Source: Giardia intestinalis (taxonomy: Eukaryota). Taken from it: DNA of 64,000 nt. Below the pieces are notes generated by a model. That model saw nothing but the letters and a program-made list of their open reading frames with translations, had not been told where the DNA came from and made no database searches. The translations under genes were made by a program, and so were the position numbers. The stretch lies in the NCBI GenBank assembly GCA_000002435.2, contig CM018792.1; one strand, given 5' to 3'. Numbering within the stretch: position 1 is the first letter of the stretch; every line of letters begins with the position of its first letter. Positions 1,066 to 52,953 of the stretch are shown here, one piece after another.

Positions 1066-1099
1066 CGATCTGCAAGAGTAAATTCTATGTCTGTTGAGG

Positions 1100-14970: not shown

Positions 14971-15091
14971 CTTTTAAAAATAAAAATCTCTGCTCCTTTT
15001 CGAGTGGTGTTTTCCTACAGGAATGCCTCGAGGCCTCATGGCACAAAACAAATAGTTCAAAGGTTATATATAGAATTGTGCGGGGTTTGCG

Positions 15092-15163
15092 CCGGAATAG
15101 CTCAGCGGTAGAGCGCTGCACTTGTAATGCAGTGGTCGCGGGTTCAATTCCCGCTTTCGGCTT
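15092..15163 (+). tRNA. tRNA-Thr (anticodon UGU).
   Basis: Hand-folded cloverleaf. Acceptor stem GCCGGAA/TTTCGGC with one G-U pair. D arm GCTC-AGCGGTA-GAGC. Anticodon stem CTGCA/TGCAG with loop CTTGTAA, giving anticodon TGT. Variable loop TGGTC. T arm GCGGG-TTCAATT-CCCGC. Discriminator T. 72 nt, no intron. Confidence 0.8.
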
Positions 15164-15187
15164 TTCAGTGGGCCTTACAGGTTACAG

Positions 15188-15991: not shown

Positions 15992-16424
15992 ATGCATGAT
16001 GGTGCGTCTCACTAACGCTGGCCCGTTCTTTGGGTGTGCTGCAAGTCTGTCCTTCTTTTCCGGACGTGCATGCACTCCCACGAGGAACCTACAATTCTGG
16101 ATGCAGTGAAGGGGCCGATTACACGTCAGCCCTAGCAGCCCATGAGAGCCGCCTCCTGCAGACCTCTGGCCCAGGTTATACTGAGGACGCTATCGTAGAC
16201 ACAGATCTTTAGAAATCCTCATCCAACTTGAGTGCCTGAAGGAGTCTTAGTCTCGAGCATTATGCAATCTAACCACCATCGTTCTCGGCTCCAGCTGATC
16301 TTTCCCAATACAAGAGACATCGGGGACCCGTCGCCCAATTCGCACTCACAGTCGCTGTCTCCTGCCAATGGGCGCACCTACTCGAGCTTTCTCCACAATC
16401 GCCACCGCAGTAGATACATTTACA

Positions 16425-32793: not shown

Positions 32794-35331
32794 TTACCTC
32801 CCTCCTGCTCGTCCAGATGCGCCACGCTTCTTTAGGAGCCGTGCTCTTGCTGCGTCCAGGTCTTTGTAACTATGTTGATCAACTTCCAACATATGTTGAA
32901 CTTTATTGGCGGCGCGCTCTCGTCCTGTTTTAAGCTTTAGCTTTTGTTCTGTTCGGAGAGCTGCTTTCCGTCTGATTTCTCTCCGAGCACTCCGCTCCTC
33001 GTCTCGTTTCTGCTTTTTGATACGCTTCTCTTCTACACGGGCGCGCTCGCGGGCCTTGTTGGGATCCATACTCTTTCCTGGGCAAAAGTCAACCATATAC
33101 ATAGGTTCGTTTGCTTTGATCTCAGGAAGCCTATCATCTATCCAACTTAGACTCTGCTCTTTTCTTTCAGACGACAGCGTCTCAACCAGCAAATTAAGAG
33201 ACCACTGAATCGAGAATTGTGTACCAGGGGTGCTATAACTTTCTGCAGGCACTAAGTGAGATTGGAGCTCCTTGCAAATTGGCAATAGAAGTGAGTACTG
33301 TGAGGATAGGTCGTACTTCTTTGCGATCTTAAGTTGTAAGAAACATGCGTTGAGAACTGTTGAGAACCCTGCTAATATATTTCCCAGGGTGAAAGTCAGA
33401 TCGTCCTGGAATAGAGACGGTAGCAACTCAATCTTGTGTTCTGTTGGTACACTTAGGACTATGTACGGCGCAGTAATAGATTGAAAAACCTTCTTAGGTG
33501 TGTCTGTGATGGCAACGGAGTGTGCAAATAACTTGGAATATACACGGAGTATACACGCGAGGCCTCGAGACACAGATGGAATATGAAGTTGAGTTGCATT
33601 ACTTAGCATGAGGGTGGTCAGAACGAGAGCCTGCAAGAAAAGAGTCTCTTGATATATTGTACAGAGCATGCAGCTATTCATATTAATTAGTGCATCCTCT
33701 GTTGTCAAAAGAATCTGTTCAAGGCGCAAACACAGACCTTGAATTGGAGCGTCGTTGGCCAAAAACATAGCGGTATAGAGAGGCTGTTCCTCAAACACGC
33801 GCATATTAGTGAGTGCAAACTCATCTGGGGATAACGTATACCAAGTTCCTTGTGGAAAAACAATGGCCATTAAATTAGAAAGCATAACACCTCCAAATAT
33901 TGCACGACCATGTAGAGAAAGAAACCCTTTTGGCTGCTCATCACAGGCCTCTGTTTTTTGACTGGCTATAGATGCAGTGGAAAAAAGCACAGTGTCAAGA
34001 CCTTCTATTCTTTTCTTCTTATTAGAGCATTTGCTTTTTAAGGCCTCCTGATTGTGTAGAGAGATCCTCATAAAATTCACAGCCTGGACCGCTTTGTGAT
34101 ACGTTAAGATAAGCTTTTGATAGGCAGACATCATGTAATGTGGAATTTCACTGGTTATATGTCGTAGTCCTCGAGCCTGAGCGTCAATGCGAACTGGATC
34201 TAGTTCAGGCGCGTCATAGATGAGGTACATGAAGCGAGTGGTGCAGAAAGATCCCAATCTCTCCATTTCGGGACGATTAGATCTTTCCAAGAGCGTAGAG
34301 TTGGACTTAATGAGCCTGTCTAGGACCAGTATCTCCTCAATCGATTGAACAGAGTCCAACATTGCCTGGAACTCATCCATAGTACTTGGAACTGGCAACG
34401 AGAATGACAGCTTTTCGAAATATGTGGGCTGAACTTCCCGGCAGAGAAAATGAGGCAACTGATGCTCTCTAGTATCATCTTCCTCACTGTGCTCATTGCC
34501 TTCTGTGCCACTTTGCGTATCAGATTCTTCAGGAGTATCAGATGAAAAATTATCTCCTAAGTTGAAATCTCCGTTAAGGCACTCTGGATCATTACTGGTA
34601 ATATTGGTGGATTGCTGGTGGTCAAGTTTAGGACGCATAACTGGAGCTGTGCTCCTGTCTCTATCCATTTTCTCCAGTGTTTCAGCACACGCTCTTACTG
34701 CGTCGGCTAAATTAGTAGCCCCACGTGACGCATGGACGCGGACTCCATCTAAAGGTTGAAACTCTGCAACAATGGACTGGGATTCCAGACGAGTCTCTTT
34801 CGGCAACAGTCGAGACACTGTCCCATAAGCTCTGTCGAGCTGTTGTACGGCTTCTGAAACATCTCTATTAATACGCTTATGCTCTTCTCGGTAGGCTTTT
34901 GCTTTAGCACGGACCTCGGCGTAAACATCTCTAGCACGCTGCCTCATTTCCCGCTCATAAAAAATCCGCTCATCTGGCCGCGTATTATCTGGAAAATCGA
35001 ATTTCTGTGGTGTCTGATTAATACTGTGTCGTATGAGTTCGCTACGTTGATAGGAATAGCCCTTTTCTCCTTGCTTCGGAACAATGCGCTCATCATTTAT
35101 TTCCGCTATTACGTGAGCATTGTTACCCGCAGAACCAAGTGGTTTTTTGATTGCCTCGGTAATGGGCTTTGCACAAGTGTGTCTATATTTATGCTCCCCT
35201 TTGTTGAGGACTTGACGGCGTGTATTCACCTTAATATGATCAAATGGGTTCAGCTTTCCGTCTTCTACACCCATTTTCCGCTTCACTATGTCCAGTTTTG
35301 CTTGTAACTTAAGGTGGGTCGGTTTCCCCAT
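32794..35331 (-). CDS. Hypothetical protein (845 aa from Met at 35331). The open frame continues to 35604 into the GC-rich repeat, but I take that extension as spurious.
   Basis: The body has ordinary Giardia composition. The 5'-most 91 codons (35332..35604) are low-complexity, Arg/Pro/Gly-rich and GC-rich, and 229 nt of them lie inside the inverted repeat (boundary at 35375). The same sequence mirrored at 52687..52941 makes a dead-end 84-aa ORF. Met35331 (MGKPTHLKLQ...) is 44 nt outside the repeat. Confidence 0.55.
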   Translation of the reverse strand: MGKPTHLKLQAKLDIVKRKMGVEDGKLNPFDHIKVNTRRQVLNKGEHKYRHTCAKPITEAIKKPLGSAGNNAHVIAEINDERIVPKQGEKGYSYQRSELIRHSINQTPQKFDFPDNTRPDERIFYEREMRQRARDVYAEVRAKAKAYREEHKRINRDVSEAVQQLDRAYGTVSRLLPKETRLESQSIVAEFQPLDGVRVHASRGATNLADAVRACAETLEKMDRDRSTAPVMRPKLDHQQSTNITSNDPECLNGDFNLGDNFSSDTPEESDTQSGTEGNEHSEEDDTREHQLPHFLCREVQPTYFEKLSFSLPVPSTMDEFQAMLDSVQSIEEILVLDRLIKSNSTLLERSNRPEMERLGSFCTTRFMYLIYDAPELDPVRIDAQARGLRHITSEIPHYMMSAYQKLILTYHKAVQAVNFMRISLHNQEALKSKCSNKKKRIEGLDTVLFSTASIASQKTEACDEQPKGFLSLHGRAIFGGVMLSNLMAIVFPQGTWYTLSPDEFALTNMRVFEEQPLYTAMFLANDAPIQGLCLRLEQILLTTEDALINMNSCMLCTIYQETLFLQALVLTTLMLSNATQLHIPSVSRGLACILRVYSKLFAHSVAITDTPKKVFQSITAPYIVLSVPTEHKIELLPSLFQDDLTFTLGNILAGFSTVLNACFLQLKIAKKYDLSSQYSLLLPICKELQSHLVPAESYSTPGTQFSIQWSLNLLVETLSSERKEQSLSWIDDRLPEIKANEPMYMVDFCPGKSMDPNKARERARVEEKRIKKQKRDEERSARREIRRKAALRTEQKLKLKTGRERAANKVQHMLEVDQHSYKDLDAARARLLKKRGASGRAGGR

Positions 35332-35699
35332 TATATTTATTTTAAGAAGAGATTTACTCCGTGTTAACAGACGAGCTTGCCACCCGCTGCCCGAGCAGGC
35401 CCGCTGGGGCCTCTCCCCCGCCCTGCGCGGTTGACCCCGAGAGCCTGGAGGCCGCCCGATTCTGGGGAGGGGAGGGGTGTCGCGCCTCCTCGCTCTGAGC
35501 GTCGTGACCTTGCTCTTGCGACACCGTCTGGGCTTCTCCTTTCTCTCACTCAGCCCCCTTGGGGCCAACTTCTGTATGGAGTGGAAAGCAGTGATCTTGG
35601 CCACGTAGCCTAGGGCCTTGGTACTCTATGACGAAGATTGCATACGCCATGAACCTCGGGATGGCCCGAAGCTCACCGGATACTTTCTTGTCATCTCGT

Positions 35700-37751
35700 G
35701 GAGCGGGTGTCCGTCCCACTATCAAGGGTGTGCTCCCCGTATGCCTCTATCTTGGAGTTAGAGTACGCACTCATGGATGCCGGCGGACAGCTCCCATGCG
35801 TTGGTGCCGAGGAAGAGGTCCAGCCCTGGTTTGCCTTCCCGCTCGACCCGTCCTTCTGCTCATGGACCACAGCGCGCCTCTTGTGCAGTGCTAGGAGACG
35901 CATACCGACAGACATTGCGCCTTGCCACGTCACTGGCCGGATCTTCCTGCTCGCGGTTGGCATGCGGCTCCTCGTCTGTCTGAACAAGGCAGTGGGGGTT
36001 GGAGTGGCAGAACTAGAGCGTGTTTGCCAGAGGCGCTAGTCTGCCGGCTAGAGGCGGAGTCGAGCGATGCCTGCCCAGAGATGCTCGCTCGGCTGCGAGG
36101 AGCACTGCAGGGGGTTCCACGAGCGCGGGAAGGCTCCCTCCCCTAGAAGCCCCGAGGGCCCTCGCGTCCCCGAGTTCAGTCTCCAGGGGCTTTGCGGGCA
36201 TATGCGACGATCTGGGCGCAAGAGCCCTGGGTGGTCTCGAACTCCGGACGCACGCTTTCACCAGGGTTTCGCACCCGAGCGTCCTCAGATACCACCGGGT
36301 AATCAGAACGAGCTGCTTTGTCTACACAACCATGGACCGCGGCCACAGAAGTCTAGGACAACTCCTCCTTGAGCACATGCAGGCCGACGAGCCGGTCGCT
36401 GAGGGCCTGGTGTTGTCCATCATGGAGCAGCTTTCTACCGGGCTTACCTACCTCCATGACGTCTGCTGGGAGGACGCCAGCGGAGCGCCCTGCCAGGGAA
36501 TCGTCCACTAGAGCCTCACGCCCGCCGACGCCCTCATTAGACAGGACGAACAGCGCGTCGTGCTCGCAGACTTCGCGTCCACAGAAACGCTCTGCACAGT
36601 GGCAGTGCGGAGGCAGAGGGCCCCGCGTACACGGATCCTGAAGCCCTCAGATGGCGCGGCCTCCGATCTCTGGGCCCTTGGTGCTATCGCATGCGAGCCT
36701 GCCACTTTGAAGGGGCCGAGCTTCCTGGACGGGTAAGACGCAAAGGCCCCTTTGTCGCCGGATGGAAGCCGAATCTGGGCCTTGTTGTGAAGGATCTCGT
36801 GTGGGATGTCCTCGGGAGGGTCTTTGCCTCAGACCCCGAGTGGTGACCAACAGCCACCAAGCTCGCCAGCCTGCTTCTGCGTGCGGGACGTCTGCTGTGG
36901 GCCCGGATCTCCAGGCCGGCGAGTTGGCAAGCACGGGCGAGTCTCTGCGGCCAGTGCCGAGTCTGTCCTTTCGAGGCAGGGCCCGAAGATGCCGCTCAGC
37001 ATATCAGAGGCATTGGCGCATCCATCGGGCCGTTCCACCAAAGGGCGGGAGCAGCACACTGCAGACGGGCACGGGGCTTCCATCGAATCGACCGACCAGG
37101 TTGCAGCGAGCGGCACGAGGTCCCTATCCTTCCGGGTCCCTGCGAAGGACTCCTCGTGGACCCGGCTGATGCGCGCTGCCGTTACTGGAGATCTCAAGAC
37201 GGCACAGAAGCACCTTGGTGAAAAGGACAAGAAGAACGAGGCGGCGACGCGGTGTACACTCCTGCCGTCAAGGCCGGACAGGGGCCGATGCTGGAGCTCC
37301 TTGACCTTACGGATAAGGCCGGGTCACGGCGCTCATGAGGGCTGCGGACAGAGGAGACGCAGAGGCAGTGAGGCTTCTGGTGAAGCACGAGGACGGCATG
37401 AGGGATGACGATGATTGACGGCGCTCATGATAGCAGCACGGTATCGCCATCCGGAATGCGTTAAGCTTGCTAGAGAGGGAAGCATGTATGACAGGCATAA
37501 GAGGCGCGACTGCTCTTGTGCATGCGGCGGCCAACGGCAGTGCCTTGTGCATACCCTTCCTCTTGGAGAAGGAGGCATGTGTGCAGGACGCCAGTGGCTG
37601 GTCTGCTCTCGCGTGGGCAACATATCTAGATAAGCCAGAGTGTGCGAAGCTTCTTATGGGGGAGGAGGACATAGAAATCACCCCCATAGCTGGAGGGTAT
37701 GCCGACGATGGCAACAATGGCAAGACCGGTGGCGACTATTGTCGACTATGA
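35700..37751 (+). pseudogene. NEK-type Ser/Thr kinase plus ankyrin-repeat pseudogene with a nonsense codon in the catalytic loop.
   Basis: Kinase subdomains IV-VIa in ORF 36020..36511 (HPSVLRYHRVIRTSCFVYTTMDRGHRSLGQLLLEHM...IMEQLSTGLTYLH). The frame then reads GIVH-TAG-SLTPADALIRQDEQRVVLADFA...ASDLWALGAI, that is HRDLKP, DFG and subdomain IX, with TAG (36496-36498) replacing the Arg of HRD and DFG changed to DFA. Ankyrin repeats are spread over three frames (WTRLMRAAVTGDLKTAQKHL; TALMIAARYRHPECVKLA; GATALVHAAANGSALCIPFLLEKEACVQDASGWSALAWATYLDKPECAKLL). Confidence 0.7.
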
Positions 37752-40301
37752 CGACTATGATTACTCGACTCCTATGACCACGATTATCATGCTCCTGACG
37801 ATCATGACGTTTACGATTGCTACGGTTACTAGTATTCTGATAACTATGATTTTCATAATCCTTTTGAATGCGATTCCTTATGTGGCGCCACAGCTCTTGA
37901 GCTAGAGGATGGATCATCGAGGGATAGTGGAGGTTCTTTCAACGCGACTGCAGGGTACTAACGGGCTTCTCTACAGGCACACCTTTATACAACTGCCAAT
38001 CTGTTTGCAGCAGTAAAGCTGCGTCACCGCAGTGGCCTAGGGGCTGCTCGATCTATAATTCCGCAAGGGGCAGGCTGATAAAGCAAAACTCTGCGGCCTA
38101 ATTTGTGCCCTGTACAGCCAGCAAGCAAATCCTCTGGACCGCCAGCAGAGCTGCTCGTTCAGCGGAGCGCCGTCTCGTAGGGAGAAGCGGGACGTCACTG
38201 TCAGGCCCAAGCGAGAGTGCCGGCGCCATGCGAACAGTCTCCGGTCCCTGGAGGCCGCCCCGGGTCACCGAAGGCAGGGTATCCTATTGCACAGTGCAGG
38301 CGCGTAGCAGCTAACAGAACCGGCGCAAGTGGCGGCCGAGCGGTGGCTTTTGCGCCTCTCCGAAGTGGGGAGACAGTGTCCAGAAGGCGCGAGGTTCCCG
38401 CGATTTGTCTGGAGCCAGCCGGGAGCGTCACAGAAAAAGCATCTTGAGGGCTCCCTAGGTGCAGTGGCAAAGGGACGTCCGCTGCTTCTTCGCCAGCGGC
38501 TTGCCCGGTGGACCACAGGGCCTCCTAGGCCGCCAAGCGCGAACACAGCTGCGATGAGTGGCTACTGTACGCCCTTGTGACACAGAGTGGACGTGCAGGA
38601 TGCCAGCGACGTGCTGAGGAAGGCTTTATTACCCTCCTGCTGTCTGTGCACCTGCTCCTGGTAAGGATGCTGAGCCCATGCTTACAAGCCACGGCCCCTT
38701 TGAGAGTGGCCAAAGCCGGTGCTCGAGCAGAGATAGATGGCTGCCTCGCAGATCTCGAATCGCTGCGCATGCCGGTCCAGAGAGACACCGATCAGCCCGT
38801 CACTAGGGATGAGGATCCAGGCATGAGAATCGCCAGCCTCCCGCGCCTCGGATGGACCCAGGCGATGGTGGTACGGGGCTAAGGGTCCTGCTACATCCGG
38901 GCAGACCAGGCATTGCCTCTGAACATGACATCAGGTCAGGGCCCTGTCGCGGACAGAGGGGCGAGGCTAGAAGCCAGCCGAGGCGGAGCAGCTGCATAGA
39001 CGGGAGCGCAGGTTATTATGGCAGCAGACTTCCACAGACGAGGGAGCCCGCGCTCTACTCCAGGATGAAACAGCGACGCCCCAGAGTGCGGCCCCGAACC
39101 ATGCTGCACCCCTCCTTTTGTGGCGCGGGAAGACTGCATGCACTTCAACCACGATGCATCCGGCCTTGAACACTGTGCGGAAAGACAGGCGGCCAGTGCG
39201 ATTCATGCGACGCAAGGAAGATGCCTCACCTTCTGATGCCCTACAATGCGGGGAACATAGCCCCCTGCGCACGGGCTGTCTGCTTAAGGACGGCAAGCAC
39301 ATGGAACCAGGCATGAACGGAACCGGGTCTTGATAGCGGCACGGCTGTCTTCAAGGGAAGGGTGATCTCTTGTCTCTTTAAGCAAGACGTGCTGGATCGC
39401 ACAAGCTTACGATTGGGTGAGGAAGGCTTCTGCATGCAACTCTCTGGCATGACCTAGCTGCAAACAGGCGGCAGCGAAGAGCGGACAGCGGGCTCCAGTC
39501 GTGCGGAAGGAGGATGCACCTGCCTGAGGCTACACGCAGTCATCAGGCGGGGCGTTCTCTGCAGAGGTTACGTGCTATGCAGGGTCGTGTCAAACCGAAG
39601 GACCACTCTTAGATGAGCCAGACCAAGGTGCCCCCATCCGCGCGAGACAGGCCTGTCAGATATATGGCATGCCTGCGAAAGTGAGCGCCGACAGGCAGGG
39701 GCCCGGGTAGACCTGGCGTCCTGGCCCAGAGAGTGAACGAGGACGGCCCGCGATACTTGTCCAGCCGAAGTATGAACGCTATGATGCCCCGGGTTGGACA
39801 AGCAACTCTTAGCGCCCCCCCTGAGAGGCTGCAGAGGACGGGCTTCTGGATGGAGGGACGACCCCAGCCAGGCAGACGTGATCACAGAAGAAGGGGCGCT
39901 GGAACCCGGAACAGTGGCTGACGACTGCGTGTCTGCGCGATGCAGTGCCCACTACTGTCAGTCGGCACACGGCGGTCGGCAGGACGCAGAGCTGCAGAGT
40001 GCTGGAGGCGCCGAGCGAGGCCAGTCTCGCTCATGGGACAGAGGCTGCCTGAGCCCCGCAGTCCTGCGAGCCTCTGGACGGTGGCAACAAGAGACCTTTC
40101 ATGGTACGCATCTGCCTGGATGGCGGCGTGATCCCAGAGCCGGCATCGTACCACTTCACGAGCATCACGATCGCTGTGTCCCCCACGATGGTCACTCGGG
40201 CAGTAGTCAGGTGCAGGGCATGGCGGCTCTTCCCTGTCCCCCAGCAGGACCTCGTAAGAGTAGAGTAGATTGTATAACGATGGACGCGTTTACTATCTAA
40301 G

Positions 40302-42524
40302 TCACGCCTTGCCCCTACATATGAACCACCAGCAGAGGAAGCCCACGAGGCCCCCAACGACGACGATGACTGCGACGGAGATGCCCGCGATGGCCCCCGT
40401 GGAGAGCCCGCTCTTATTCGTGCTTCCGCCAGTATTGTCGCCGGTATTATCATCCGTTTCGAAACATATGAACTTGCCGTTAACAGGTGTCGCGCACTGC
40501 CTGCATCCAGCCAGCCCCTCGGAGCACTTTCTGCACGGCCCATTACTACTACTCTCCTTGTAATATCCAGGAGTACATACCTTGCATGTAGTAGCATCGG
40601 CTTCGCAGGTGTAGCAACTTTCGTGGCATTTCGTGCAGGCACTGCCGACCTTCACATATCCGTCCATGCACCTAGAACAGTCCCTAGTGGTGGTGCACTC
40701 AGCGCACCCAGTGTAGCAAGCCACAAGGCTCTCGCCTGTCAGGCTAAATCCTTCTTCCGGAGTCTTGCAGGTTCCGCCTGTACTCTGCGCACTCAAGCAC
40801 ACTGTCGACCCCGGAAGCTGGCTGGTGGAGTAGCAGCCGCCGTTCATCTTGAAGAAGCCGTCTGCGCAGACATTGCACACGCCACCAGTAATGCTTCCAT
40901 CTTTGCACTTATCTGTGCGACTGGTTTTAACAGCACAGACGCCGTTCTGGGGATACTCGTTGTTTTGACTACAGACAGAGCAGTATTTTGTCCCCTCAAC
41001 AGTCAGACCGCACTCCCTGCACTTGCCTGTGCCTGTGCCCGCCGCGCACTCGGCCCCACATGTGCCAGTGTTTCCTGTGGATCCGTAGGTGAGCGCGCTT
41101 CCAGACTTACAGCTTGTGCAATCATTGGCAGTATTTCCGCTACATGTCTTACAGCTGGAATCGCAAGGGGAGCACGCTTCGCCGTAGAAGCCGTCCTTAC
41201 AGAGACCGCACCCGCCATTTTCACTGCACGCGAGACAGTTGGCGACCTCGCACTTCTTGCAGACCCTCTTGTTGCCCTCTGTGCTACTGTAGTAGCCTAG
41301 AATATATTCGCAGTGGTCTATGCACTGGTTTGTTGGCGTCAGATACTTGTTGGACAGACATTCGGTGCAGATCTCTTTGTTTGTTTGTGCACCACTGCAT
41401 GCCTTACAATCCTGAGTACTGCATGGATTTGAAGGGGAATCATTTGGCACGCATTGTGTTTCTTCTTCGTCAAGTTTAAATCCATCATTGCACGTGCAAG
41501 TATTCTCGGTCTTGGCTTCTGAGTTATCAGGGCAGCTACTAATGCACGACTTCTTTCCGAGTCCAAATACCATATTTTCCTTACACGCTGTGCAGGTAAC
41601 GGAGGTGTCACTTTTGGTGCATGTTTTGCAGTTCTCAAACGTTCCTGCCGTGCACGGCTTGCACGTCTTCGGCTCCTCATCGTCGGCGTAGTGGGTGTTT
41701 CCACTCGTGCACGCTTCCTCAGTCACGCACTCGCCTGCCTGATCCTGTGACTGCGCCTTCTTTAGGTACGGCTTGTCCTCATTGCAAGAGGTGCACTTCG
41801 TAGCCTCGGTCTCACAGGTCTTGCATGTCTCAGCGCACTTGGTGCATTTTTTACTGCCTGTTGCATCGACGAAGAAGCCTGCAGTACTCGTGCACTCATG
41901 TTCCGTCACACACGACGTCACGTCGCCGTCCGTCTTAACAATCCTCGCGGTTTGCTGCGCATCAGGGCCGCACGCAGTACACTTAGCAACTCCACTGGCC
42001 TCTACCGTTAATTGTAATCCGTCACAGGCAGTGCACCCATCCACGCCCGTGTACTTCTTATTGCCAGTAAGCGTCACGCCTATCGAATCTCCGCACGAAA
42101 CAACCGAGTCGTGCGCATTATCAGCGCCCGGCGGTAGAAAGTATCCTTCCGTAGCCTGTGTGCACTTACCACCAGCTGCTCCTCCACACATCACATTGCC
42201 AGGCTCAATAGCTTGTTCGTAACACCCGCCCTTGTACATAAAAGTCTGACCAGCGCACTTTGCACAGGTCTCATCAGATGCAGTATTTCCATCGGCAGCT
42301 GTACATTTATCTGTTACATCATCTTTGCCTACACATTTTCCATTGATAGGAACAAATCCTGTGTTACATTGAGAGCAATACAATTTACCACCGATCAGAA
42401 CGTTGCATGCGTTTGCTGCACAATTGGCGTTATTCGCGCAGTGAGCTTCCCGCGCACGTTCTGCTACTTTTTCTGCCCATGCAATCTGGATGGCTAGGCC
42501 CGCGAATATAAAACTGCCGAACAT
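40302..42524 (-). CDS. vsp: Variant-specific surface protein (VSP), 740 aa, copy 1 of an identical pair.
   Basis: Signal peptide MFGSFIFAGLAIQIAWA. About 12% Cys with many CXXC motifs. C-terminal TM plus the invariant Giardia VSP tail GGLVGFLCWWFICRGKA. AGTAAAC polyA signal 7 nt after the stop (40288..40294 on the minus strand). Confidence 0.93.
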   Translation of the reverse strand: MFGSFIFAGLAIQIAWAEKVAERAREAHCANNANCAANACNVLIGGKLYCSQCNTGFVPINGKCVGKDDVTDKCTAADGNTASDETCAKCAGQTFMYKGGCYEQAIEPGNVMCGGAAGGKCTQATEGYFLPPGADNAHDSVVSCGDSIGVTLTGNKKYTGVDGCTACDGLQLTVEASGVAKCTACGPDAQQTARIVKTDGDVTSCVTEHECTSTAGFFVDATGSKKCTKCAETCKTCETEATKCTSCNEDKPYLKKAQSQDQAGECVTEEACTSGNTHYADDEEPKTCKPCTAGTFENCKTCTKSDTSVTCTACKENMVFGLGKKSCISSCPDNSEAKTENTCTCNDGFKLDEEETQCVPNDSPSNPCSTQDCKACSGAQTNKEICTECLSNKYLTPTNQCIDHCEYILGYYSSTEGNKRVCKKCEVANCLACSENGGCGLCKDGFYGEACSPCDSSCKTCSGNTANDCTSCKSGSALTYGSTGNTGTCGAECAAGTGTGKCRECGLTVEGTKYCSVCSQNNEYPQNGVCAVKTSRTDKCKDGSITGGVCNVCADGFFKMNGGCYSTSQLPGSTVCLSAQSTGGTCKTPEEGFSLTGESLVACYTGCAECTTTRDCSRCMDGYVKVGSACTKCHESCYTCEADATTCKVCTPGYYKESSSNGPCRKCSEGLAGCRQCATPVNGKFICFETDDNTGDNTGGSTNKSGLSTGAIAGISVAVIVVVGGLVGFLCWWFICRGKA

Positions 42525-43439
42525 TAACCAATCTGGTAGATTGATAGGAACAGAATCGCGATATATTCAGCCAATCCGTGTGACTGACACATGATGATGA
42601 TGATGATTTACTCCACCCACCGGTTGCTTCCAGTGGTGTGCTGCTGGGGCCCTCGCCTGCAGGCGCTGTCCGCAAATCTCGCGAGTAAATTCCCGCTCAA
42701 TTTTTGGCGATGTCCGGAGATGAGGGTTGGTCACGGGCCGTAACGATAATCACAGCGGTTGTAAGGAGGAGCTATCTGCATTCCTCGGCTGTTCCGTGGG
42801 CATGCGCACACAACCGGACCTGAAACGAAGGAGAGCCCGCAAGGACCCGATCCACATCATGAACGCAAGATCGTACCTTCGGGCCCCCAGAGAGCAAGCC
42901 GTGAGTCTCTACTTGGGAGACCACTCCAAAGACGCTTGCCCTCTCGGCAGGACACACACGCTGGCTCTGTGGCCTACCGTGCAAGAGTGCCAACAATCAA
43001 CCGAGCACCTGAGAGAAGCAAATGATAACAGACACAGAGTACTAGGTGACGACAAACTGATCATTCCATCCCATATACCGAACCAGACAGCTGCCATGCT
43101 CATCCACCAGGGTGCAGCATGATCGCGAGCATCGAGCAGGCCGGGACTGGGGTAGCGCTCCCCGCTATCAGGGGCCTGAACGCCTTGGTAGGAAACTGCT
43201 AGAAGACTCAAGCAACACAGCAGAGCAGACCCAGAGCAAGGCGGACCCAGACCCCGAGAAGGCGAGACGCCGGATAGCAAACAGGGTGAACAACGCGCTG
43301 AGTTTCGGGGCAGTTGCCAAGGCCCTCCGCGCCCTTGATGACACGCCCACGATAGACAAGCCGGAGAAGGCCGACCGCCCTCAGCGCGCTACACCTGTGC
43401 GTCCCCCCGAAGGCTACGTTGGCCTTGACTACCCTCCAT

Positions 43440-45110
43440 CGATGAGCTCGACGGGCTGGAGTGGCAACCGAAGAAGAAATGAGGAAGGCTCTGTTTGAGA
43501 CTCTCAACAAGAAGGCCTCGGGCCGGTCCAGCTCAAGGCGATGAAGCAGAGCGACAGCTTCGTGAAGTACCTCACGCAGGCATACAACGAGCTGACCACC
43601 CACCCCGAGGCGATGCCAGAGGTGATGGCCATGCTCGAGTTCCGGGCGATCCTCATCCCGAAGGAGTCCGACGGATACCGCCCGATCGCGATAGGCGAGA
43701 CGGTGACAAACATCTTCCACCGCGTCCTGCTGAAGGGCTGATCAGGCATGCCAACTACCTCTTGTGCGAACAGATCGCCTTCATGCAGAACGCATACGCG
43801 GTAGGCGTGAGGAGGGCCCACGAGCTCATCAGCAGGACAGGAGCACGCCGTCTCCCTCGACACAAAGAACGCCCTCAACTCGCTCCCGAGGGCGGAGGTC
43901 GTCAGAGCCCTGAACGAGGCGGGCGTCCCGAAGGTCCTGGTCGACTACATCGGGGACTTCCTCGACCTGAGGCACAGCCGGGACGTGAAGTGCGAGGTCT
44001 GCGGCGTCCCCCAGGGCGACCCGCTCAGCATGCTCCTCTTCTGCATGGCCACCGAGCGCCTCCTGAGACGCCTCAGGGAGAGGGGCATCACCTTCCTTGC
44101 CTATGCGGACGACATCGTGGCGTTCCACGACGAGGCCTACCCAGCAGGCGTGATAACACAGCTGGCCATGGGCCTGACGATCAGGAGCGACAATGCAAGT
44201 CCACCATGGCGGGCGAGGAGGTGACCTTCCCCAACCACCCGGTGTCCCCCACTCCTGCCAGTCTCGCGCCGAAGGCCATCGCAGGTGCCGAGACTGCCCT
44301 GAGGAAGATTGAGAACGCCCCCATAACCACCCACCAGAAGCTCATCCTGATGTCACTCTGCGTGGTCCCGATGGTGAACTACGCCCCCCTGGTCGAGATA
44401 ACATCGGATAAGGCGGACTACAAGGAGCTGACAGATATCGCACAAGGCTTCAGCAAGCTAACCAGCAGAAGCTGCGATCGCCTGGTCGACTTCCTGGCGT
44501 ACCAAAGGAGAAGGGCGGCCCGGGCCTGCTCATGCCGGGGTTCTACCACGACGAGCTGCGGAGAGCATGGGCCTCCCTGGACGTCAACAAGGGGACCAGA
44601 GACCCGGTGGAGCTGCCGGTGGAAGGCCAGGCACTGCAAGGGAAGGGGACCTACTCCAACCGCCTCCTCACGCATACACCAGCTTCCGGACAGAGCGGCG
44701 GCGTGCTGACCGAGGAGGAAAGGGCCCTGAAGCAGAGAGATGGCTCGATCATGGGGCAGACAAGAGGCACCTGCCCGGGCTGCCACACGGCAAGGACCCT
44801 CGACCGCGACATGATCGTCACGTGCCTGTACCTCCGCGTCTCAGGGAAGTTCAACGCAGAGCTGGAGGTCAAGACCCACAGCCACCTCAGCGGCCAGAAC
44901 CAGAAGCCCGACATCTGGTTCGTCGACAAGTGCAAGGCGATAGATGTGGGTGTCATCCAGCCCCGCCAGATGGACGCCTACTACAACGAGAAGGTCAAGA
45001 AGTACAGGGACGGGACGCTCCCGATCATCTACGGGACAGACGGATCCCTCCACCCAAGTCCAAGGGGCACCTCGAGGAGCTCCACGTGGACCTCTGTCCG
45101 GGCTGCCTTC
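43440..45110 (+). mobile_element. Degenerate non-LTR retrotransposon (Giardia GilD/Genie-like: RT plus CCHC plus REL-endonuclease) with at least 3 frameshifts, filling the palindrome spacer.
   Basis: RT motif 0 (EEEMRKALFETLNKKASGP..QLKAMK, about 43470-43560, frameshifted). Motifs 1-2 (AILIPKESDGYRPIAIGETVTNIFHRVLLK, 43541..43741). Motif A (VSLDTKNALNSLPRAEVV), B (CGVPQGDPLSMLLF) and C (FLAYADDIVAF) in a second frame (about 43840..44222). Thumb in a third frame (ALRKIENAPITTHQKLILMSLCVVPMVNYAPLVE). Then CPGCH...C and a PD-(D/E)xK block (KPDIWFVDKCKAIDVGV) in ORF 44532..45359. No frame is intact across them. Confidence 0.8.
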
Positions 45111-45766
45111 GCCATCGCCCACATGGCTGCAAAGGCGAACGAGCACCCGACGAAGCTGATCAGACGGGCCGGGCCGAAAGCCTGGCCACCCAGAGCGACC
45201 GTCTCCTGTCATCCTACTTCTGACAACCGAATGAGTCCATCCCCGGGACCTGTCGACAACGACCGAGAAGGGGCGCAAGACTGGACACACAACCGAGTTG
45301 AATCCCAACCAGAAGAGAAAGCCCCGCTAGCTGCTGCTGATATACATGGACAGTATTGAGAATGACAACAAAGACCAGAGCTTCACTCACCGTGAAGGGA
45401 GAGCAAGGAGAGGCACCCTAGTAGACCAGCAAGCCTGCAGGACGGCTTGATCTCTGAAAGAACCGATGTGCACACCCAGTCTGAGCTCACGCCCACGGAA
45501 CAGCCGAGGAATGCAGATAGCTCCTCCCTTCCACTACTGTGGTCTTTGTATTGATACACGACCAACCCTCGTCTCCGGACTAGTCAGGGACTGAGCAAGA
45601 GCTTACCCGTGAGATCTCTGGACCATACCTGCAGGCGAGGGCCCCAGCAGCACACCACTGGAAGCAACCGGTGGGTGGAGTAAATCATCATCATCATCAT
45701 GTGTCAGTCACACGGATTGGCTGAATATATCGCGATTCTGTTCCTATCAATCTACCAGATTGGTTA

Positions 45767-47989
45767 ATGTTCGGCAGTTTTATATTCGCGGGCCTAGCCA
45801 TCCAGATTGCATGGGCAGAAAAAGTAGCAGAACGTGCGCGGGAAGCTCACTGCGCGAATAACGCCAATTGTGCAGCAAACGCATGCAACGTTCTGATCGG
45901 TGGTAAATTGTATTGCTCTCAATGTAACACAGGATTTGTTCCTATCAATGGAAAATGTGTAGGCAAAGATGATGTAACAGATAAATGTACAGCTGCCGAT
46001 GGAAATACTGCATCTGATGAGACCTGTGCAAAGTGCGCTGGTCAGACTTTTATGTACAAGGGCGGGTGTTACGAACAAGCTATTGAGCCTGGCAATGTGA
46101 TGTGTGGAGGAGCAGCTGGTGGTAAGTGCACACAGGCTACGGAAGGATACTTTCTACCGCCGGGCGCTGATAATGCGCACGACTCGGTTGTTTCGTGCGG
46201 AGATTCGATAGGCGTGACGCTTACTGGCAATAAGAAGTACACGGGCGTGGATGGGTGCACTGCCTGTGACGGATTACAATTAACGGTAGAGGCCAGTGGA
46301 GTTGCTAAGTGTACTGCGTGCGGCCCTGATGCGCAGCAAACCGCGAGGATTGTTAAGACGGACGGCGACGTGACGTCGTGTGTGACGGAACATGAGTGCA
46401 CGAGTACTGCAGGCTTCTTCGTCGATGCAACAGGCAGTAAAAAATGCACCAAGTGCGCTGAGACATGCAAGACCTGTGAGACCGAGGCTACGAAGTGCAC
46501 CTCTTGCAATGAGGACAAGCCGTACCTAAAGAAGGCGCAGTCACAGGATCAGGCAGGCGAGTGCGTGACTGAGGAAGCGTGCACGAGTGGAAACACCCAC
46601 TACGCCGACGATGAGGAGCCGAAGACGTGCAAGCCGTGCACGGCAGGAACGTTTGAGAACTGCAAAACATGCACCAAAAGTGACACCTCCGTTACCTGCA
46701 CAGCGTGTAAGGAAAATATGGTATTTGGACTCGGAAAGAAGTCGTGCATTAGTAGCTGCCCTGATAACTCAGAAGCCAAGACCGAGAATACTTGCACGTG
46801 CAATGATGGATTTAAACTTGACGAAGAAGAAACACAATGCGTGCCAAATGATTCCCCTTCAAATCCATGCAGTACTCAGGATTGTAAGGCATGCAGTGGT
46901 GCACAAACAAACAAAGAGATCTGCACCGAATGTCTGTCCAACAAGTATCTGACGCCAACAAACCAGTGCATAGACCACTGCGAATATATTCTAGGCTACT
47001 ACAGTAGCACAGAGGGCAACAAGAGGGTCTGCAAGAAGTGCGAGGTCGCCAACTGTCTCGCGTGCAGTGAAAATGGCGGGTGCGGTCTCTGTAAGGACGG
47101 CTTCTACGGCGAAGCGTGCTCCCCTTGCGATTCCAGCTGTAAGACATGTAGCGGAAATACTGCCAATGATTGCACAAGCTGTAAGTCTGGAAGCGCGCTC
47201 ACCTACGGATCCACAGGAAACACTGGCACATGTGGGGCCGAGTGCGCGGCGGGCACAGGCACAGGCAAGTGCAGGGAGTGCGGTCTGACTGTTGAGGGGA
47301 CAAAATACTGCTCTGTCTGTAGTCAAAACAACGAGTATCCCCAGAACGGCGTCTGTGCTGTTAAAACCAGTCGCACAGATAAGTGCAAAGATGGAAGCAT
47401 TACTGGTGGCGTGTGCAATGTCTGCGCAGACGGCTTCTTCAAGATGAACGGCGGCTGCTACTCCACCAGCCAGCTTCCGGGGTCGACAGTGTGCTTGAGT
47501 GCGCAGAGTACAGGCGGAACCTGCAAGACTCCGGAAGAAGGATTTAGCCTGACAGGCGAGAGCCTTGTGGCTTGCTACACTGGGTGCGCTGAGTGCACCA
47601 CCACTAGGGACTGTTCTAGGTGCATGGACGGATATGTGAAGGTCGGCAGTGCCTGCACGAAATGCCACGAAAGTTGCTACACCTGCGAAGCCGATGCTAC
47701 TACATGCAAGGTATGTACTCCTGGATATTACAAGGAGAGTAGTAGTAATGGGCCGTGCAGAAAGTGCTCCGAGGGGCTGGCTGGATGCAGGCAGTGCGCG
47801 ACACCTGTTAACGGCAAGTTCATATGTTTCGAAACGGATGATAATACCGGCGACAATACTGGCGGAAGCACGAATAAGAGCGGGCTCTCCACGGGGGCCA
47901 TCGCGGGCATCTCCGTCGCAGTCATCGTCGTCGTTGGGGGCCTCGTGGGCTTCCTCTGCTGGTGGTTCATATGTAGGGGCAAGGCGTGA
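45767..47989 (+). CDS. vsp: Variant-specific surface protein (VSP), 740 aa, copy 2. Identical to 40302..42524 and head-to-head with it.
   Basis: Identical 740-aa translation ending ...FLCWWFICRGKA. AGTAAAC polyA signal at 47997..48003. Confidence 0.93.
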   Translation: MFGSFIFAGLAIQIAWAEKVAERAREAHCANNANCAANACNVLIGGKLYCSQCNTGFVPINGKCVGKDDVTDKCTAADGNTASDETCAKCAGQTFMYKGGCYEQAIEPGNVMCGGAAGGKCTQATEGYFLPPGADNAHDSVVSCGDSIGVTLTGNKKYTGVDGCTACDGLQLTVEASGVAKCTACGPDAQQTARIVKTDGDVTSCVTEHECTSTAGFFVDATGSKKCTKCAETCKTCETEATKCTSCNEDKPYLKKAQSQDQAGECVTEEACTSGNTHYADDEEPKTCKPCTAGTFENCKTCTKSDTSVTCTACKENMVFGLGKKSCISSCPDNSEAKTENTCTCNDGFKLDEEETQCVPNDSPSNPCSTQDCKACSGAQTNKEICTECLSNKYLTPTNQCIDHCEYILGYYSSTEGNKRVCKKCEVANCLACSENGGCGLCKDGFYGEACSPCDSSCKTCSGNTANDCTSCKSGSALTYGSTGNTGTCGAECAAGTGTGKCRECGLTVEGTKYCSVCSQNNEYPQNGVCAVKTSRTDKCKDGSITGGVCNVCADGFFKMNGGCYSTSQLPGSTVCLSAQSTGGTCKTPEEGFSLTGESLVACYTGCAECTTTRDCSRCMDGYVKVGSACTKCHESCYTCEADATTCKVCTPGYYKESSSNGPCRKCSEGLAGCRQCATPVNGKFICFETDDNTGDNTGGSTNKSGLSTGAIAGISVAVIVVVGGLVGFLCWWFICRGKA

Positions 47990-47996
47990 CTTAGAT

Positions 47997-48003
47997 AGTA
48001 AAC
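47997..48003 (+). terminator. Giardia polyadenylation signal AGTAAAC (AGTRAAY) 7 nt after the VSP stop. Its mirror is at 40288..40294 on the minus strand.
   Basis: Exact match to the AGTRAAY consensus, which normally lies within about 10-30 nt downstream of the stop codon in Giardia mRNAs. Confidence 0.7.
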
Positions 48004-50539
48004 GCGTCCATCGTTATACAATCTACTCTACTCTTACGAGGTCCTGCTGGGGGACAGGGAAGAGCCGCCATGCCCTGCACCTGACTACTGCCCGAGTGAC
48101 CATCGTGGGGGACACAGCGATCGTGATGCTCGTGAAGTGGTACGATGCCGGCTCTGGGATCACGCCGCCATCCAGGCAGATGCGTACCATGAAAGGTCTC
48201 TTGTTGCCACCGTCCAGAGGCTCGCAGGACTGCGGGGCTCAGGCAGCCTCTGTCCCATGAGCGAGACTGGCCTCGCTCGGCGCCTCCAGCACTCTGCAGC
48301 TCTGCGTCCTGCCGACCGCCGTGTGCCGACTGACAGTAGTGGGCACTGCATCGCGCAGACACGCAGTCGTCAGCCACTGTTCCGGGTTCCAGCGCCCCTT
48401 CTTCTGTGATCACGTCTGCCTGGCTGGGGTCGTCCCTCCATCCAGAAGCCCGTCCTCTGCAGCCTCTCAGGGGGGGCGCTAAGAGTTGCTTGTCCAACCC
48501 GGGGCATCATAGCGTTCATACTTCGGCTGGACAAGTATCGCGGGCCGTCCTCGTTCACTCTCTGGGCCAGGACGCCAGGTCTACCCGGGCCCCTGCCTGT
48601 CGGCGCTCACTTTCGCAGGCATGCCATATATCTGACAGGCCTGTCTCGCGCGGATGGGGGCACCTTGGTCTGGCTCATCTAAGAGTGGTCCTTCGGTTTG
48701 ACACGACCCTGCATAGCACGTAACCTCTGCAGAGAACGCCCCGCCTGATGACTGCGTGTAGCCTCAGGCAGGTGCATCCTCCTTCCGCACGACTGGAGCC
48801 CGCTGTCCGCTCTTCGCTGCCGCCTGTTTGCAGCTAGGTCATGCCAGAGAGTTGCATGCAGAAGCCTTCCTCACCCAATCGTAAGCTTGTGCGATCCAGC
48901 ACGTCTTGCTTAAAGAGACAAGAGATCACCCTTCCCTTGAAGACAGCCGTGCCGCTATCAAGACCCGGTTCCGTTCATGCCTGGTTCCATGTGCTTGCCG
49001 TCCTTAAGCAGACAGCCCGTGCGCAGGGGGCTATGTTCCCCGCATTGTAGGGCATCAGAAGGTGAGGCATCTTCCTTGCGTCGCATGAATCGCACTGGCC
49101 GCCTGTCTTTCCGCACAGTGTTCAAGGCCGGATGCATCGTGGTTGAAGTGCATGCAGTCTTCCCGCGCCACAAAAGGAGGGGTGCAGCATGGTTCGGGGC
49201 CGCACTCTGGGGCGTCGCTGTTTCATCCTGGAGTAGAGCGCGGGCTCCCTCGTCTGTGGAAGTCTGCTGCCATAATAACCTGCGCTCCCGTCTATGCAGC
49301 TGCTCCGCCTCGGCTGGCTTCTAGCCTCGCCCCTCTGTCCGCGACAGGGCCCTGACCTGATGTCATGTTCAGAGGCAATGCCTGGTCTGCCCGGATGTAG
49401 CAGGACCCTTAGCCCCGTACCACCATCGCCTGGGTCCATCCGAGGCGCGGGAGGCTGGCGATTCTCATGCCTGGATCCTCATCCCTAGTGACGGGCTGAT
49501 CGGTGTCTCTCTGGACCGGCATGCGCAGCGATTCGAGATCTGCGAGGCAGCCATCTATCTCTGCTCGAGCACCGGCTTTGGCCACTCTCAAAGGGGCCGT
49601 GGCTTGTAAGCATGGGCTCAGCATCCTTACCAGGAGCAGGTGCACAGACAGCAGGAGGGTAATAAAGCCTTCCTCAGCACGTCGCTGGCATCCTGCACGT
49701 CCACTCTGTGTCACAAGGGCGTACAGTAGCCACTCATCGCAGCTGTGTTCGCGCTTGGCGGCCTAGGAGGCCCTGTGGTCCACCGGGCAAGCCGCTGGCG
49801 AAGAAGCAGCGGACGTCCCTTTGCCACTGCACCTAGGGAGCCCTCAAGATGCTTTTTCTGTGACGCTCCCGGCTGGCTCCAGACAAATCGCGGGAACCTC
49901 GCGCCTTCTGGACACTGTCTCCCCACTTCGGAGAGGCGCAAAAGCCACCGCTCGGCCGCCACTTGCGCCGGTTCTGTTAGCTGCTACGCGCCTGCACTGT
50001 GCAATAGGATACCCTGCCTTCGGTGACCCGGGGCGGCCTCCAGGGACCGGAGACTGTTCGCATGGCGCCGGCACTCTCGCTTGGGCCTGACAGTGACGTC
50101 CCGCTTCTCCCTACGAGACGGCGCTCCGCTGAACGAGCAGCTCTGCTGGCGGTCCAGAGGATTTGCTTGCTGGCTGTACAGGGCACAAATTAGGCCGCAG
50201 AGTTTTGCTTTATCAGCCTGCCCCTTGCGGAATTATAGATCGAGCAGCCCCTAGGCCACTGCGGTGACGCAGCTTTACTGCTGCAAACAGATTGGCAGTT
50301 GTATAAAGGTGTGCCTGTAGAGAAGCCCGTTAGTACCCTGCAGTCGCGTTGAAAGAACCTCCACTATCCCTCGATGATCCATCCTCTAGCTCAAGAGCTG
50401 TGGCGCCACATAAGGAATCGCATTCAAAAGGATTATGAAAATCATAGTTATCAGAATACTAGTAACCGTAGCAATCGTAAACGTCATGATCGTCAGGAGC
50501 ATGATAATCGTGGTCATAGGAGTCGAGTAATCATAGTCG

Positions 50540-52591
50540 TCATAGTCGACAATAGTCGCCACCGGTCTTGCCATTGTTGCCATCGTCGGCATACCCTCCA
50601 GCTATGGGGGTGATTTCTATGTCCTCCTCCCCCATAAGAAGCTTCGCACACTCTGGCTTATCTAGATATGTTGCCCACGCGAGAGCAGACCAGCCACTGG
50701 CGTCCTGCACACATGCCTCCTTCTCCAAGAGGAAGGGTATGCACAAGGCACTGCCGTTGGCCGCCGCATGCACAAGAGCAGTCGCGCCTCTTATGCCTGT
50801 CATACATGCTTCCCTCTCTAGCAAGCTTAACGCATTCCGGATGGCGATACCGTGCTGCTATCATGAGCGCCGTCAATCATCGTCATCCCTCATGCCGTCC
50901 TCGTGCTTCACCAGAAGCCTCACTGCCTCTGCGTCTCCTCTGTCCGCAGCCCTCATGAGCGCCGTGACCCGGCCTTATCCGTAAGGTCAAGGAGCTCCAG
51001 CATCGGCCCCTGTCCGGCCTTGACGGCAGGAGTGTACACCGCGTCGCCGCCTCGTTCTTCTTGTCCTTTTCACCAAGGTGCTTCTGTGCCGTCTTGAGAT
51101 CTCCAGTAACGGCAGCGCGCATCAGCCGGGTCCACGAGGAGTCCTTCGCAGGGACCCGGAAGGATAGGGACCTCGTGCCGCTCGCTGCAACCTGGTCGGT
51201 CGATTCGATGGAAGCCCCGTGCCCGTCTGCAGTGTGCTGCTCCCGCCCTTTGGTGGAACGGCCCGATGGATGCGCCAATGCCTCTGATATGCTGAGCGGC
51301 ATCTTCGGGCCCTGCCTCGAAAGGACAGACTCGGCACTGGCCGCAGAGACTCGCCCGTGCTTGCCAACTCGCCGGCCTGGAGATCCGGGCCCACAGCAGA
51401 CGTCCCGCACGCAGAAGCAGGCTGGCGAGCTTGGTGGCTGTTGGTCACCACTCGGGGTCTGAGGCAAAGACCCTCCCGAGGACATCCCACACGAGATCCT
51501 TCACAACAAGGCCCAGATTCGGCTTCCATCCGGCGACAAAGGGGCCTTTGCGTCTTACCCGTCCAGGAAGCTCGGCCCCTTCAAAGTGGCAGGCTCGCAT
51601 GCGATAGCACCAAGGGCCCAGAGATCGGAGGCCGCGCCATCTGAGGGCTTCAGGATCCGTGTACGCGGGGCCCTCTGCCTCCGCACTGCCACTGTGCAGA
51701 GCGTTTCTGTGGACGCGAAGTCTGCGAGCACGACGCGCTGTTCGTCCTGTCTAATGAGGGCGTCGGCGGGCGTGAGGCTCTAGTGGACGATTCCCTGGCA
51801 GGGCGCTCCGCTGGCGTCCTCCCAGCAGACGTCATGGAGGTAGGTAAGCCCGGTAGAAAGCTGCTCCATGATGGACAACACCAGGCCCTCAGCGACCGGC
51901 TCGTCGGCCTGCATGTGCTCAAGGAGGAGTTGTCCTAGACTTCTGTGGCCGCGGTCCATGGTTGTGTAGACAAAGCAGCTCGTTCTGATTACCCGGTGGT
52001 ATCTGAGGACGCTCGGGTGCGAAACCCTGGTGAAAGCGTGCGTCCGGAGTTCGAGACCACCCAGGGCTCTTGCGCCCAGATCGTCGCATATGCCCGCAAA
52101 GCCCCTGGAGACTGAACTCGGGGACGCGAGGGCCCTCGGGGCTTCTAGGGGAGGGAGCCTTCCCGCGCTCGTGGAACCCCCTGCAGTGCTCCTCGCAGCC
52201 GAGCGAGCATCTCTGGGCAGGCATCGCTCGACTCCGCCTCTAGCCGGCAGACTAGCGCCTCTGGCAAACACGCTCTAGTTCTGCCACTCCAACCCCCACT
52301 GCCTTGTTCAGACAGACGAGGAGCCGCATGCCAACCGCGAGCAGGAAGATCCGGCCAGTGACGTGGCAAGGCGCAATGTCTGTCGGTATGCGTCTCCTAG
52401 CACTGCACAAGAGGCGCGCTGTGGTCCATGAGCAGAAGGACGGGTCGAGCGGGAAGGCAAACCAGGGCTGGACCTCTTCCTCGGCACCAACGCATGGGAG
52501 CTGTCCGCCGGCATCCATGAGTGCGTACTCTAACTCCAAGATAGAGGCATACGGGGAGCACACCCTTGATAGTGGGACGGACACCCGCTCC
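50540..52591 (-). pseudogene. Second copy, identical and mirrored, of the NEK kinase plus ankyrin pseudogene.
   Basis: Mirror of 35700..37751. The same TAG sits in the HRD position (ORF 51780..52271(-) ends GIVH-stop). Confidence 0.7.
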
Positions 52592-52953
52592 ACGAGATGA
52601 CAAGAAAGTATCCGGTGAGCTTCGGGCCATCCCGAGGTTCATGGCGTATGCAATCTTCGTCATAGAGTACCAAGGCCCTAGGCTACGTGGCCAAGATCAC
52701 TGCTTTCCACTCCATACAGAAGTTGGCCCCAAGGGGGCTGAGTGAGAGAAAGGAGAAGCCCAGACGGTGTCGCAAGAGCAAGGTCACGACGCTCAGAGCG
52801 AGGAGGCGCGACACCCCTCCCCTCCCCAGAATCGGGCGGCCTCCAGGCTCTCGGGGTCAACCGCGCAGGGCGGGGGAGAGGCCCCAGCGGGCCTGCTCGG
52901 GCAGCGGGTGGCAAGCAAATTCTACAAAGATTTACTTCTAAGAACGTAAAGGA

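Follow-up and report, generated by a model that had tools for sequence, protein, structure and literature searches.

The perfect arms of an inverted pair of identical VSP genes in Giardia intestinalis end inside the inverted termini of a dead retroelement

Why two VSP genes of Giardia intestinalis should lie in palindromic arms that are identical to the last base, and why that identity should then be lost abruptly within a short distance of their start codons, is the question raised by this locus. VSP genes underlie antigenic variation in Giardia, and the duplication and homogenisation of their repertoire matter for immune evasion. The window analysed here is a stretch of 64,000 nucleotides of the WB genome (contig CM018792.1 of assembly GCA_000002435.2), and its relevant features are collected in Table 1. 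A base-by-base symmetry test found the two arms of the palindrome (35375-42663 and 45628-52916) identical at 7289 of 7289 positions, without a single mismatch, in agreement with the 7.29 kb of perfect outer arm described in a first-pass annotation of this DNA. The annotation was also right that perfect identity has a sharp inner end, although it put that end at 42662/45629, one nucleotide away from its real position at 42663/45628. The outer edge of the arms is equally sharp, and no inverted similarity above chance was seen beyond it. Moving inward from the arms, identity steps from 100% to about 75% and then to no homology.

Table 1. Coordinates of the features in and around the palindrome (positions in the window)
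Feature	Position	Strand	Remarks
Nop14-like gene	32794..35331	(-)	left of arm; 100% identical to WB XP_001705334 / KAE8304421
Left perfect arm	35375..42663		7289 bp = 7232 bp of flank + outer 57 nt of the inverted repeat
NEK-kinase/ankyrin-repeat pseudogene fragments	36206..37673; mirrored 50618-52085	(+); mirrored (-)	tblastn with the NEK kinase of L012, E = 1e-19 to 2e-9, several frames
VSP gene, 740 aa	40302..42524	(-)	Pfam VSP E = 1.1e-136; C-terminus CRGKA
Complete repeat unit, 3078 bp	42607..45684	(+)	dead non-LTR retroelement between left and right inverted repeats
Left terminal inverted repeat, ~204 bp	42607..42810	(+)	outer 57 nt (42607-42663) in perfect arm; inner 147 nt (42664-42810) = stub
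Frameshifted reverse transcriptase + CCHC + endonuclease-like motif	43199..45089	(+)	three frames with stop codons
Right terminal inverted repeat, ~203 bp	45482..45684	(-)	outer 57 nt (45628-45684) perfect; inner 146 nt (45482-45627) divergent variant
Right perfect arm	45628..52916		7289 bp
VSP gene, identical copy	45767..47989	(+)	head-to-head with the first copy, in zero-mismatch arms
M16 metalloprotease gene	52954..56355	(-)	right of arm; 100% identical to WB XP_001704875 / KAE8304424

The feature is essentially already known, as both the VSP pair and the RT remnant have been published. Adam 2010 (PMC2996952) describes 14 identical inverted vsp pairs that lie 2-4 kb apart and diverge sharply 139-729 bp from the ORF. 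The present pair shows the same properties: its identical ORFs are inverted with respect to each other, 3242 bp separate them, and divergence sets in abruptly 139 nt upstream of the ATG, at the lower bound of the published range (the outer end of the inverted repeat discussed below is 82 nt from the start codon). Table 2 of Xu 2020 (PMC7000408) contains the chromosome 4 pair 50229/d50229, given as '<- ->', with 740 aa, 3242 bp and a ψRT between the genes, and the same paper places an RT remnant between the genes in four of seven diverging pairs. With its genes pointing apart and an RT remnant in the spacer, that chromosome 4 pair is the locus studied here. For the spacer, the parts of these two papers drawn on here use the terms 'non-coding DNA' or 'ψRT'; neither terminal inverted repeats with a breakpoint inside them, nor an extension of the arms about 4.9 kb beyond the 3' end of the VSP gene, is described in those parts of the text of PMC2996952 and PMC7000408. 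Exact-protein look-ups of the VSP and of a 404-aa spacer ORF in public assemblies returned no record. What is new here is the tie between the residual inverted homology in the spacer (the stubs), the inverted ends of the retroelement and the breakpoint of arm identity, together with cross-strain evidence for concerted evolution.

Inward of the breakpoint, an alignment of nucleotides 42664-42810 to 45482-45627, taken as reverse complement, contains 109 matching and 32 mismatched positions besides 11 gap nucleotides, which corresponds to an identity of 72% over all columns and of 77% when gaps are left aside. The pairwise alignment that the first-pass annotation had proposed as a check places these inverted matches well above chance. 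Chance similarity in GC-rich sequence, for which nothing but the high GC content could be adduced, can be dismissed outright: 200 shuffles score 21.1 ± 2.2 (maximum 34) in local alignment, where the real pair reaches 100, the reciprocal blastn matches of the stubs have E = 3e-55 and 2e-50, each taking in about 70 nt of perfect arm, and the stub sequences are conserved at other loci. Further inward than 42810/45482, inverted homology does not rise above chance (score 25 against 23.9 ± 2.8), and no further copies of the spacer or of the stubs were found within the window.

The two inner inverted matches that had been annotated are thus genuine homology; they do not form separate islands, being parts of a single continuous stretch that reaches 42810/45482. 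Their details also change on alignment. The 19-mer CCGGAGATGAGGGTTGGTC had been assigned to 42705-42723 / 45551-45569 and really occupies 42714-42732 / 45560-45578, its 17-nt offset being a miscount for a register shift of 1 nt. For the 38-mer, the partner at 45491-45527 was correctly placed, although the match itself sits at 42764-42801 and not at 42762-42799, and it is exact over 37 nt (42765-42801). The mirrored peptide EELSAFLGCSVG does occur, as had been noted, in both ORFs 42727..43122(+) and 45383..45565(-), as a trivial consequence of the 37-nt DNA identity and hence no evidence of coding.

Several smaller features lie along these repeats. The 37-nt perfect core, GGAGGAGCTATCTGCATTCCTCGGCTGTTCCGTGGGC (42765-42801 / 45491-45527), is the best-kept block of the inner repeat in other copies too, which hints that it may be a constrained site, for example for protein binding or priming, within an otherwise decaying repeat. 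At the exact end of perfect identity stands the palindromic octamer CCTGCAGG (42656-42663 / 45628-45635), in the place of which all other copies of the repeat carry CCTGCGGG. A (GAT)5 / (ATC)5 microsatellite (42592-42606 / 45685-45699) adjoins the outer end of the inverted repeat, with the VSP promoter region beyond it, and DH has about 290 extra nt at the position of this microsatellite.

The nature of the stubs becomes apparent when the spacer is compared with its relatives at other loci. Copies of the element were compared at four loci, namely the window and three loci of DH (L012, L013 and L014). Over its full length, window 42607-45684 is 86-88% identical to L014 884-4054, L013 8546-11672 and L012 9193-12292, and the termini TTTACTCCACC... 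are common to the window unit and the DH copies. In an alignment of eight ends, homology begins at TTTACTCCACCCACC on both sides in the window, L013 and L014 copies, the inverted ends being marked by TTTACTCC…. The repeat ends near …CTCGGCTGTTCCGTGGGC, where it is directly abutted by internal sequence that is specific for the left or the right side; these internal sequences are 67-90% conserved among copies, left and right being unrelated to each other (15-34%). At L013 the element stands alone, between NOT2/3/5 and EamA genes; this solo copy has 213-bp inverted ends that are 94% identical, two flanks that are unrelated to each other, and no palindromic arms. At L014, a 909-bp inverted repeat runs through the end of the element and on into a VSP 3' fragment, forming a second palindrome. 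The inverted ends of L012 are partial, the left one being truncated or divergent. Since the same unit with the same termini is present at three other loci, at one of them alone, the stubs are best understood as the inner two-thirds of the unit's terminal repeats of about 200 bp. The breakpoint of arm identity at 42663/45628 falls inside these terminal inverted repeats, 57 nt from their outer end.

The same comparison indicates how the left and right repeats came to differ. The left stub is 92% identical to the left repeat of L014 and 84-85% identical to the repeats of L013, against only 72% to its own right partner, and the right variant type (…GCTTACCCGTGAGA…CTGGACCA…) recurs in the DH orthologue (L019 ~2190-2260). 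Because the left stub is nearer to its paralogues and the right variant is common to the DH orthologue, the difference between the two repeats was inherited and did not arise by decay in place. In the DH orthologue, the variant type still extends through the outer part of the right repeat, and from this it appears that WB overwrote the outer 57 nt of its right repeat.

These findings bear on the history that the first-pass annotation had proposed, in which an old palindrome once extended deeper into the present spacer, its centre was disrupted, plausibly by a retroelement, and the inner parts decayed while conversion maintained the outer 7.29 kb. The descent from 100% through about 75% to no homology does resemble a decay gradient, and the homogenisation of the arms that this history invokes is itself supported. 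However, at three other loci that have different flanks, stubs and RT segment are arranged co-linearly and end at the same points; L013, the solo copy, carries these inverted ends without any arms; the left stub resembles a paralogue more than it does its own partner; and at 42810/45482 there is no sign of an insertion scar, a poly(A) tail or a target duplication. We therefore consider inward decay around an inserted element a very improbable explanation. The sequence taken for the decayed interior of the palindrome corresponds to the inverted ends, about 200 bp each, of a dispersed unit, and the retroelement, far from disrupting the centre as an intruder, is the core of the palindrome. Very probably, the centre of the palindrome is this dispersed 3.08-kb unit with its own inverted ends, and the arms are a homogenised inverted flank.

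What kind of element forms this core can be judged from its coding remnant. The spacer translation contains the RT motif YADD (…FLAYADDIV…), and the reconstructed RT protein, which tblastn maps to 43199-44197, 44134-44514 and 44502-45089, matches Pfam RVT_1 with E = 2.2e-15. CPGCH…C and PDIWFVDKCKAIDVG, corresponding to a CCHC and a PD…D/ExK restriction-enzyme-like endonuclease motif, were seen by eye in frame 3 and gave no profile match. The solved structures nearest to the DH paralogue P0121 are R2 retrotransposon proteins, and RT homologues with 66-81% identity occur in Giardia DH, P15 and GS under the names 'hypothetical protein / reverse transcriptase'. Some of the DH copies keep open frames with RVT_1, of 587 aa (L014 1840-3603) and 595 aa (L012 10001-11788); since these are longer than any frame in the WB copy, some AII copies are less decayed.

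Terminal inverted repeats are not a normal feature of non-LTR retrotransposons, and those found here could belong to the mobile unit or represent a palindromic target site. A Class II (DNA) transposon was considered and rejected, as there is no transposase, the RT/endonuclease being the only coding remnant, and no target-site duplication; at the ends of the solo copy L013 there is at most a 2-nt (CG) repeat. A metagenome scan with the 25-nt terminus of the repeat gave no match. GilD, said to have been described by Arkhipova and Morrison in 2001, and Genie 2, said to have been described by Burke and colleagues in 2002, are reportedly a 'dead' non-LTR retrotransposon family of Giardia lamblia, and inverted repeats of up to 172 bp were reportedly found by Burke and colleagues in all copies of Genie 2. 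The window element shares with GilD and Genie 2 its interstitial position next to VSP genes and a degenerate RT with frameshifts and stops; the endonuclease-like motif seen by eye may be a further feature in common. Its inverted repeats of about 200 bp are somewhat longer than those reported for Genie 2. We read the unit as GilD/Genie 2-like, a name given for its properties (a non-LTR RT domain, a degenerate and interstitial copy by VSP genes, inverted ends) and not for identity to the GilD or Genie 2 sequence. GilD adjoins VSP genes according to the part of PMC2861651 drawn on here.

The arms themselves carry more than the VSP gene. Past the VSP 3' end, each consists of about 4.9 kb of GC-rich DNA without a long ORF, in which the pseudogene fragments listed in Table 1 are found, and a Logan gene call in contig L002, which covers part of the arm, has an Ank_2 match. 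Since this Illumina contig is 100% identical to the arm across 3.1 kb, with no bubbles, the broken frames of the pseudogene are not long-read errors. An Rfam search of the window returned a tRNA at 15091-15162 as its sole match, leaving the palindrome empty. The whole palindromic module has a GC content of about 55-64%, against about 44% in the background, and its outer edges lie close to the neighbouring genes, with the ATG of the Nop14-like gene 43 nt outside one edge and the stop codon of the M16 gene 37 nt outside the other. If the GC-rich 17.5-kb module (35375-52916) is left out, 80 nt remain between the Nop14 ATG and the M16 stop; as this is a typical intergenic gap in Giardia, the module looks as if it had been inserted into a normal short spacer.

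Other parts of the window have some resemblance to this module. Further GC-rich islands (58-63% GC) lie at 1000-3000 and 15000-16500, a NEK-like fragment is found at 1223-1492(-), there is about 72% similarity between window 2666-2897 and arm 35601-35827, and Cys-rich (VSP/HCMP-like) ORFs are present at 76-1059(+) and 16512-18371(-). There are three occurrences of the 10-mer GATTTACTCC in the window, where 0.16 would be expected. Two of them, at 42605-42614 and 45677-45686, mark the outer ends of the inverted repeats of the element, and the third, at 35351-35360, is located in the Nop14 upstream region, 15 nt outside the outer edge of the left arm, where it could be a relic of an old element end, a target motif or a coincidence.

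Arms of such perfection invite the suspicion that they were made by the assembly, through a collapse of repeats or through consensus polishing, which might also have produced the stub junction. The PacBio assembly was indeed polished with Illumina reads, as the portion of Xu 2020 (PMC7000408) drawn on here states, and reads that map to more than one place can homogenise near-identical repeats. Nevertheless, Logan short-read contigs from at least 20 AI samples, assembled independently, all stop exactly 30 nt (k-1) inside the outer edge of the arm, contig L002 agrees with the arm at every position of its 3.1 kb, and identical inverted vsp pairs were already present in the Sanger-era assembly (the relevant part of Adam 2010, PMC2996952). 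An artefact is thus barely credible. Contig L002 (SRR3568097) is a case of its own in that its segment 3404-6532 crosses the outer boundary unbroken and continues from the M16 gene into 3.1 kb of arm, unlike the contigs of at least 20 other samples; the branch may have been resolved during assembly, or the sample may be one without the left junction.

A comparison of strains, which had also been proposed as a check, gives the palindrome an age and shows how its arms have evolved. The DH contig L015 and the AII Logan contigs L016 and L017 break 30 nt into the arm, at an outer boundary homologous to that of WB, so that the boundary is common to WB and AII. Because the AII contigs break at the homologous position, the palindrome and its outer boundary predate the AI/AII split. 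In contigs from assemblages B, E and others (L009, L010, L011 and L018), sequence ends 0.26-1.6 kb after the M16 gene, and these tails are unrelated to the WB arm, with the exception of 29 nt that adjoin the stop codon in L018, the P15 tail. Between WB and DH, the arms are 83-96% identical, differing by 4-17% in 500-bp bins, whereas the flanking genes are 98.4-98.8% identical and differ by 1.2-1.6%, which means that the arms diverge between strains several-fold faster than neighbouring genes. Within DH, by contrast, the two arms are identical at 419 of 419 positions, a sample of only 419 bp from a short-read-era assembly that may collapse near-identical repeats. Arms that are alike within a strain and diverge fast between strains show, on the evidence of sequence comparison, concerted evolution by arm-to-arm gene conversion or re-copying. 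The earlier proposal that the arms are homogenised by gene conversion is supported by this pattern of perfect WB arms, identical DH arms and divergence between the two.

Still, it might be asked whether any ongoing homogenisation is needed, since a single recent inverted duplication, in which a template switch in the terminal repeat copied the 7.2-kb flank, would equally leave 7289 bp with 0 mismatches, boundaries that are sharp at both ends and a breakpoint within pre-existing inverted homology. Such an event would have to be recent to account for the perfect arms, yet the AII strains share the outer boundary even though their arm has diverged by 4-17% from that of WB, and in DH, too, no difference separates the two arms within the 419 bp sampled. 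With flanks that have diverged by 1.2-1.6%, a single event before the AI/AII split would be expected to have left some 100 differences or more between one arm and the other. A one-time duplication without subsequent conversion is therefore unlikely, and we retain homogenisation of the arms around the dispersed unit as our reading of the locus.

The DH locus differs from that of WB in two further respects. Its VSP at the orthologous position is a different one, of 747 aa (L019 2716-4959, to be compared with window 40302-42524), and the two genes have 92.5% identity over only about 120 nt round the 5' end, the remainder being about 72% identical in patches; it is the distal arm that shows the 83-96% identity. 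This points to a replacement of VSP cassettes within a conserved palindromic frame, as judged from these two alleles. In addition, the spacer of the DH (AII) assembly is reversed relative to the Nop14-side arm when compared with WB (L019 1-2271, window 43470-45634), which reflects either a genuine flip-flop inversion through crossover between the arms or an orientation left unsettled by the short-read assembly.

How could a dispersed unit with inverted ends have come to organise a palindrome of this kind? On both sides of the unit lies the same flank of 7.2 kb, in inverted orientation and comprising the promoter region, VSP gene 50229 and the NEK/ankyrin pseudogene. Homogenising tracts, whether of gene conversion or of re-copying, would run inward through this flank and through the first 57 nt of the terminal repeat. 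They would halt at 42663/45628, where the two variants of the repeat may be too different for heteroduplex extension or template switching to continue. A halt of the tracts at the point where the variants diverge would yield the observed step in identity from 100% to about 75% and then to none. As for the origin of the arrangement, we suppose that the inverted repeats of the element provided the homology for the first reverse copying of one flank to the other side. The route might have been a template switch during replication or a break-induced fold-back within the repeat, with the inverted VSP pair as the product.

Precedents exist for both parts of this scheme. In yeast, inverted repeats mediate palindromic duplication by replication template exchange or fold-back, and such events typically yield dicentric or acentric chromosomes. 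The trace that the yeast mechanism is expected to leave matches what is seen in the window, where inverted repeats of about 200 bp, 2.7 kb apart, are located exactly at the inner junction of the duplication. However, in contrast to the yeast events, the duplication in Giardia is interstitial and has a clean outer junction, so that a second switch would have been needed. The maintenance of the arms recalls the ampliconic palindromes of the human Y chromosome, which likewise have long arms that are identical within a genome, a unique spacer, and divergence between lineages. The Giardia palindrome is far smaller than these, its cargo is a gene for antigenic variation, the evidence for conversion is comparative only, and the retroelement that serves as its spacer provides, with its own inverted ends, the inner edge of the arms.

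It is tempting to extend this scheme beyond the present locus. Tentatively, and with what we take to be slightly less than an even chance of being right, the element's inverted ends of about 200 bp may be the recombination substrate that gives rise to the 19 identical inverted VSP pairs, or to most of them, and that then fixes their inner limit; the spacers of about 2.5-3.3 kb would be full or internally deleted copies of the element. This extension is based on palindromes at two loci, the window and L014, on one solo copy and on one possible inversion of the spacer between WB and DH. At the locus described here, the inner edge of an identical VSP pair falls within the inverted end of a dead retroelement, a result that points to a concrete, testable mechanism for the formation and upkeep of VSP pairs. 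If the mechanism holds for the other pairs, an extinct retroelement would drive the duplication, the homogenisation and possibly the flip-flop inversion of the genes for antigenic variation in Giardia.
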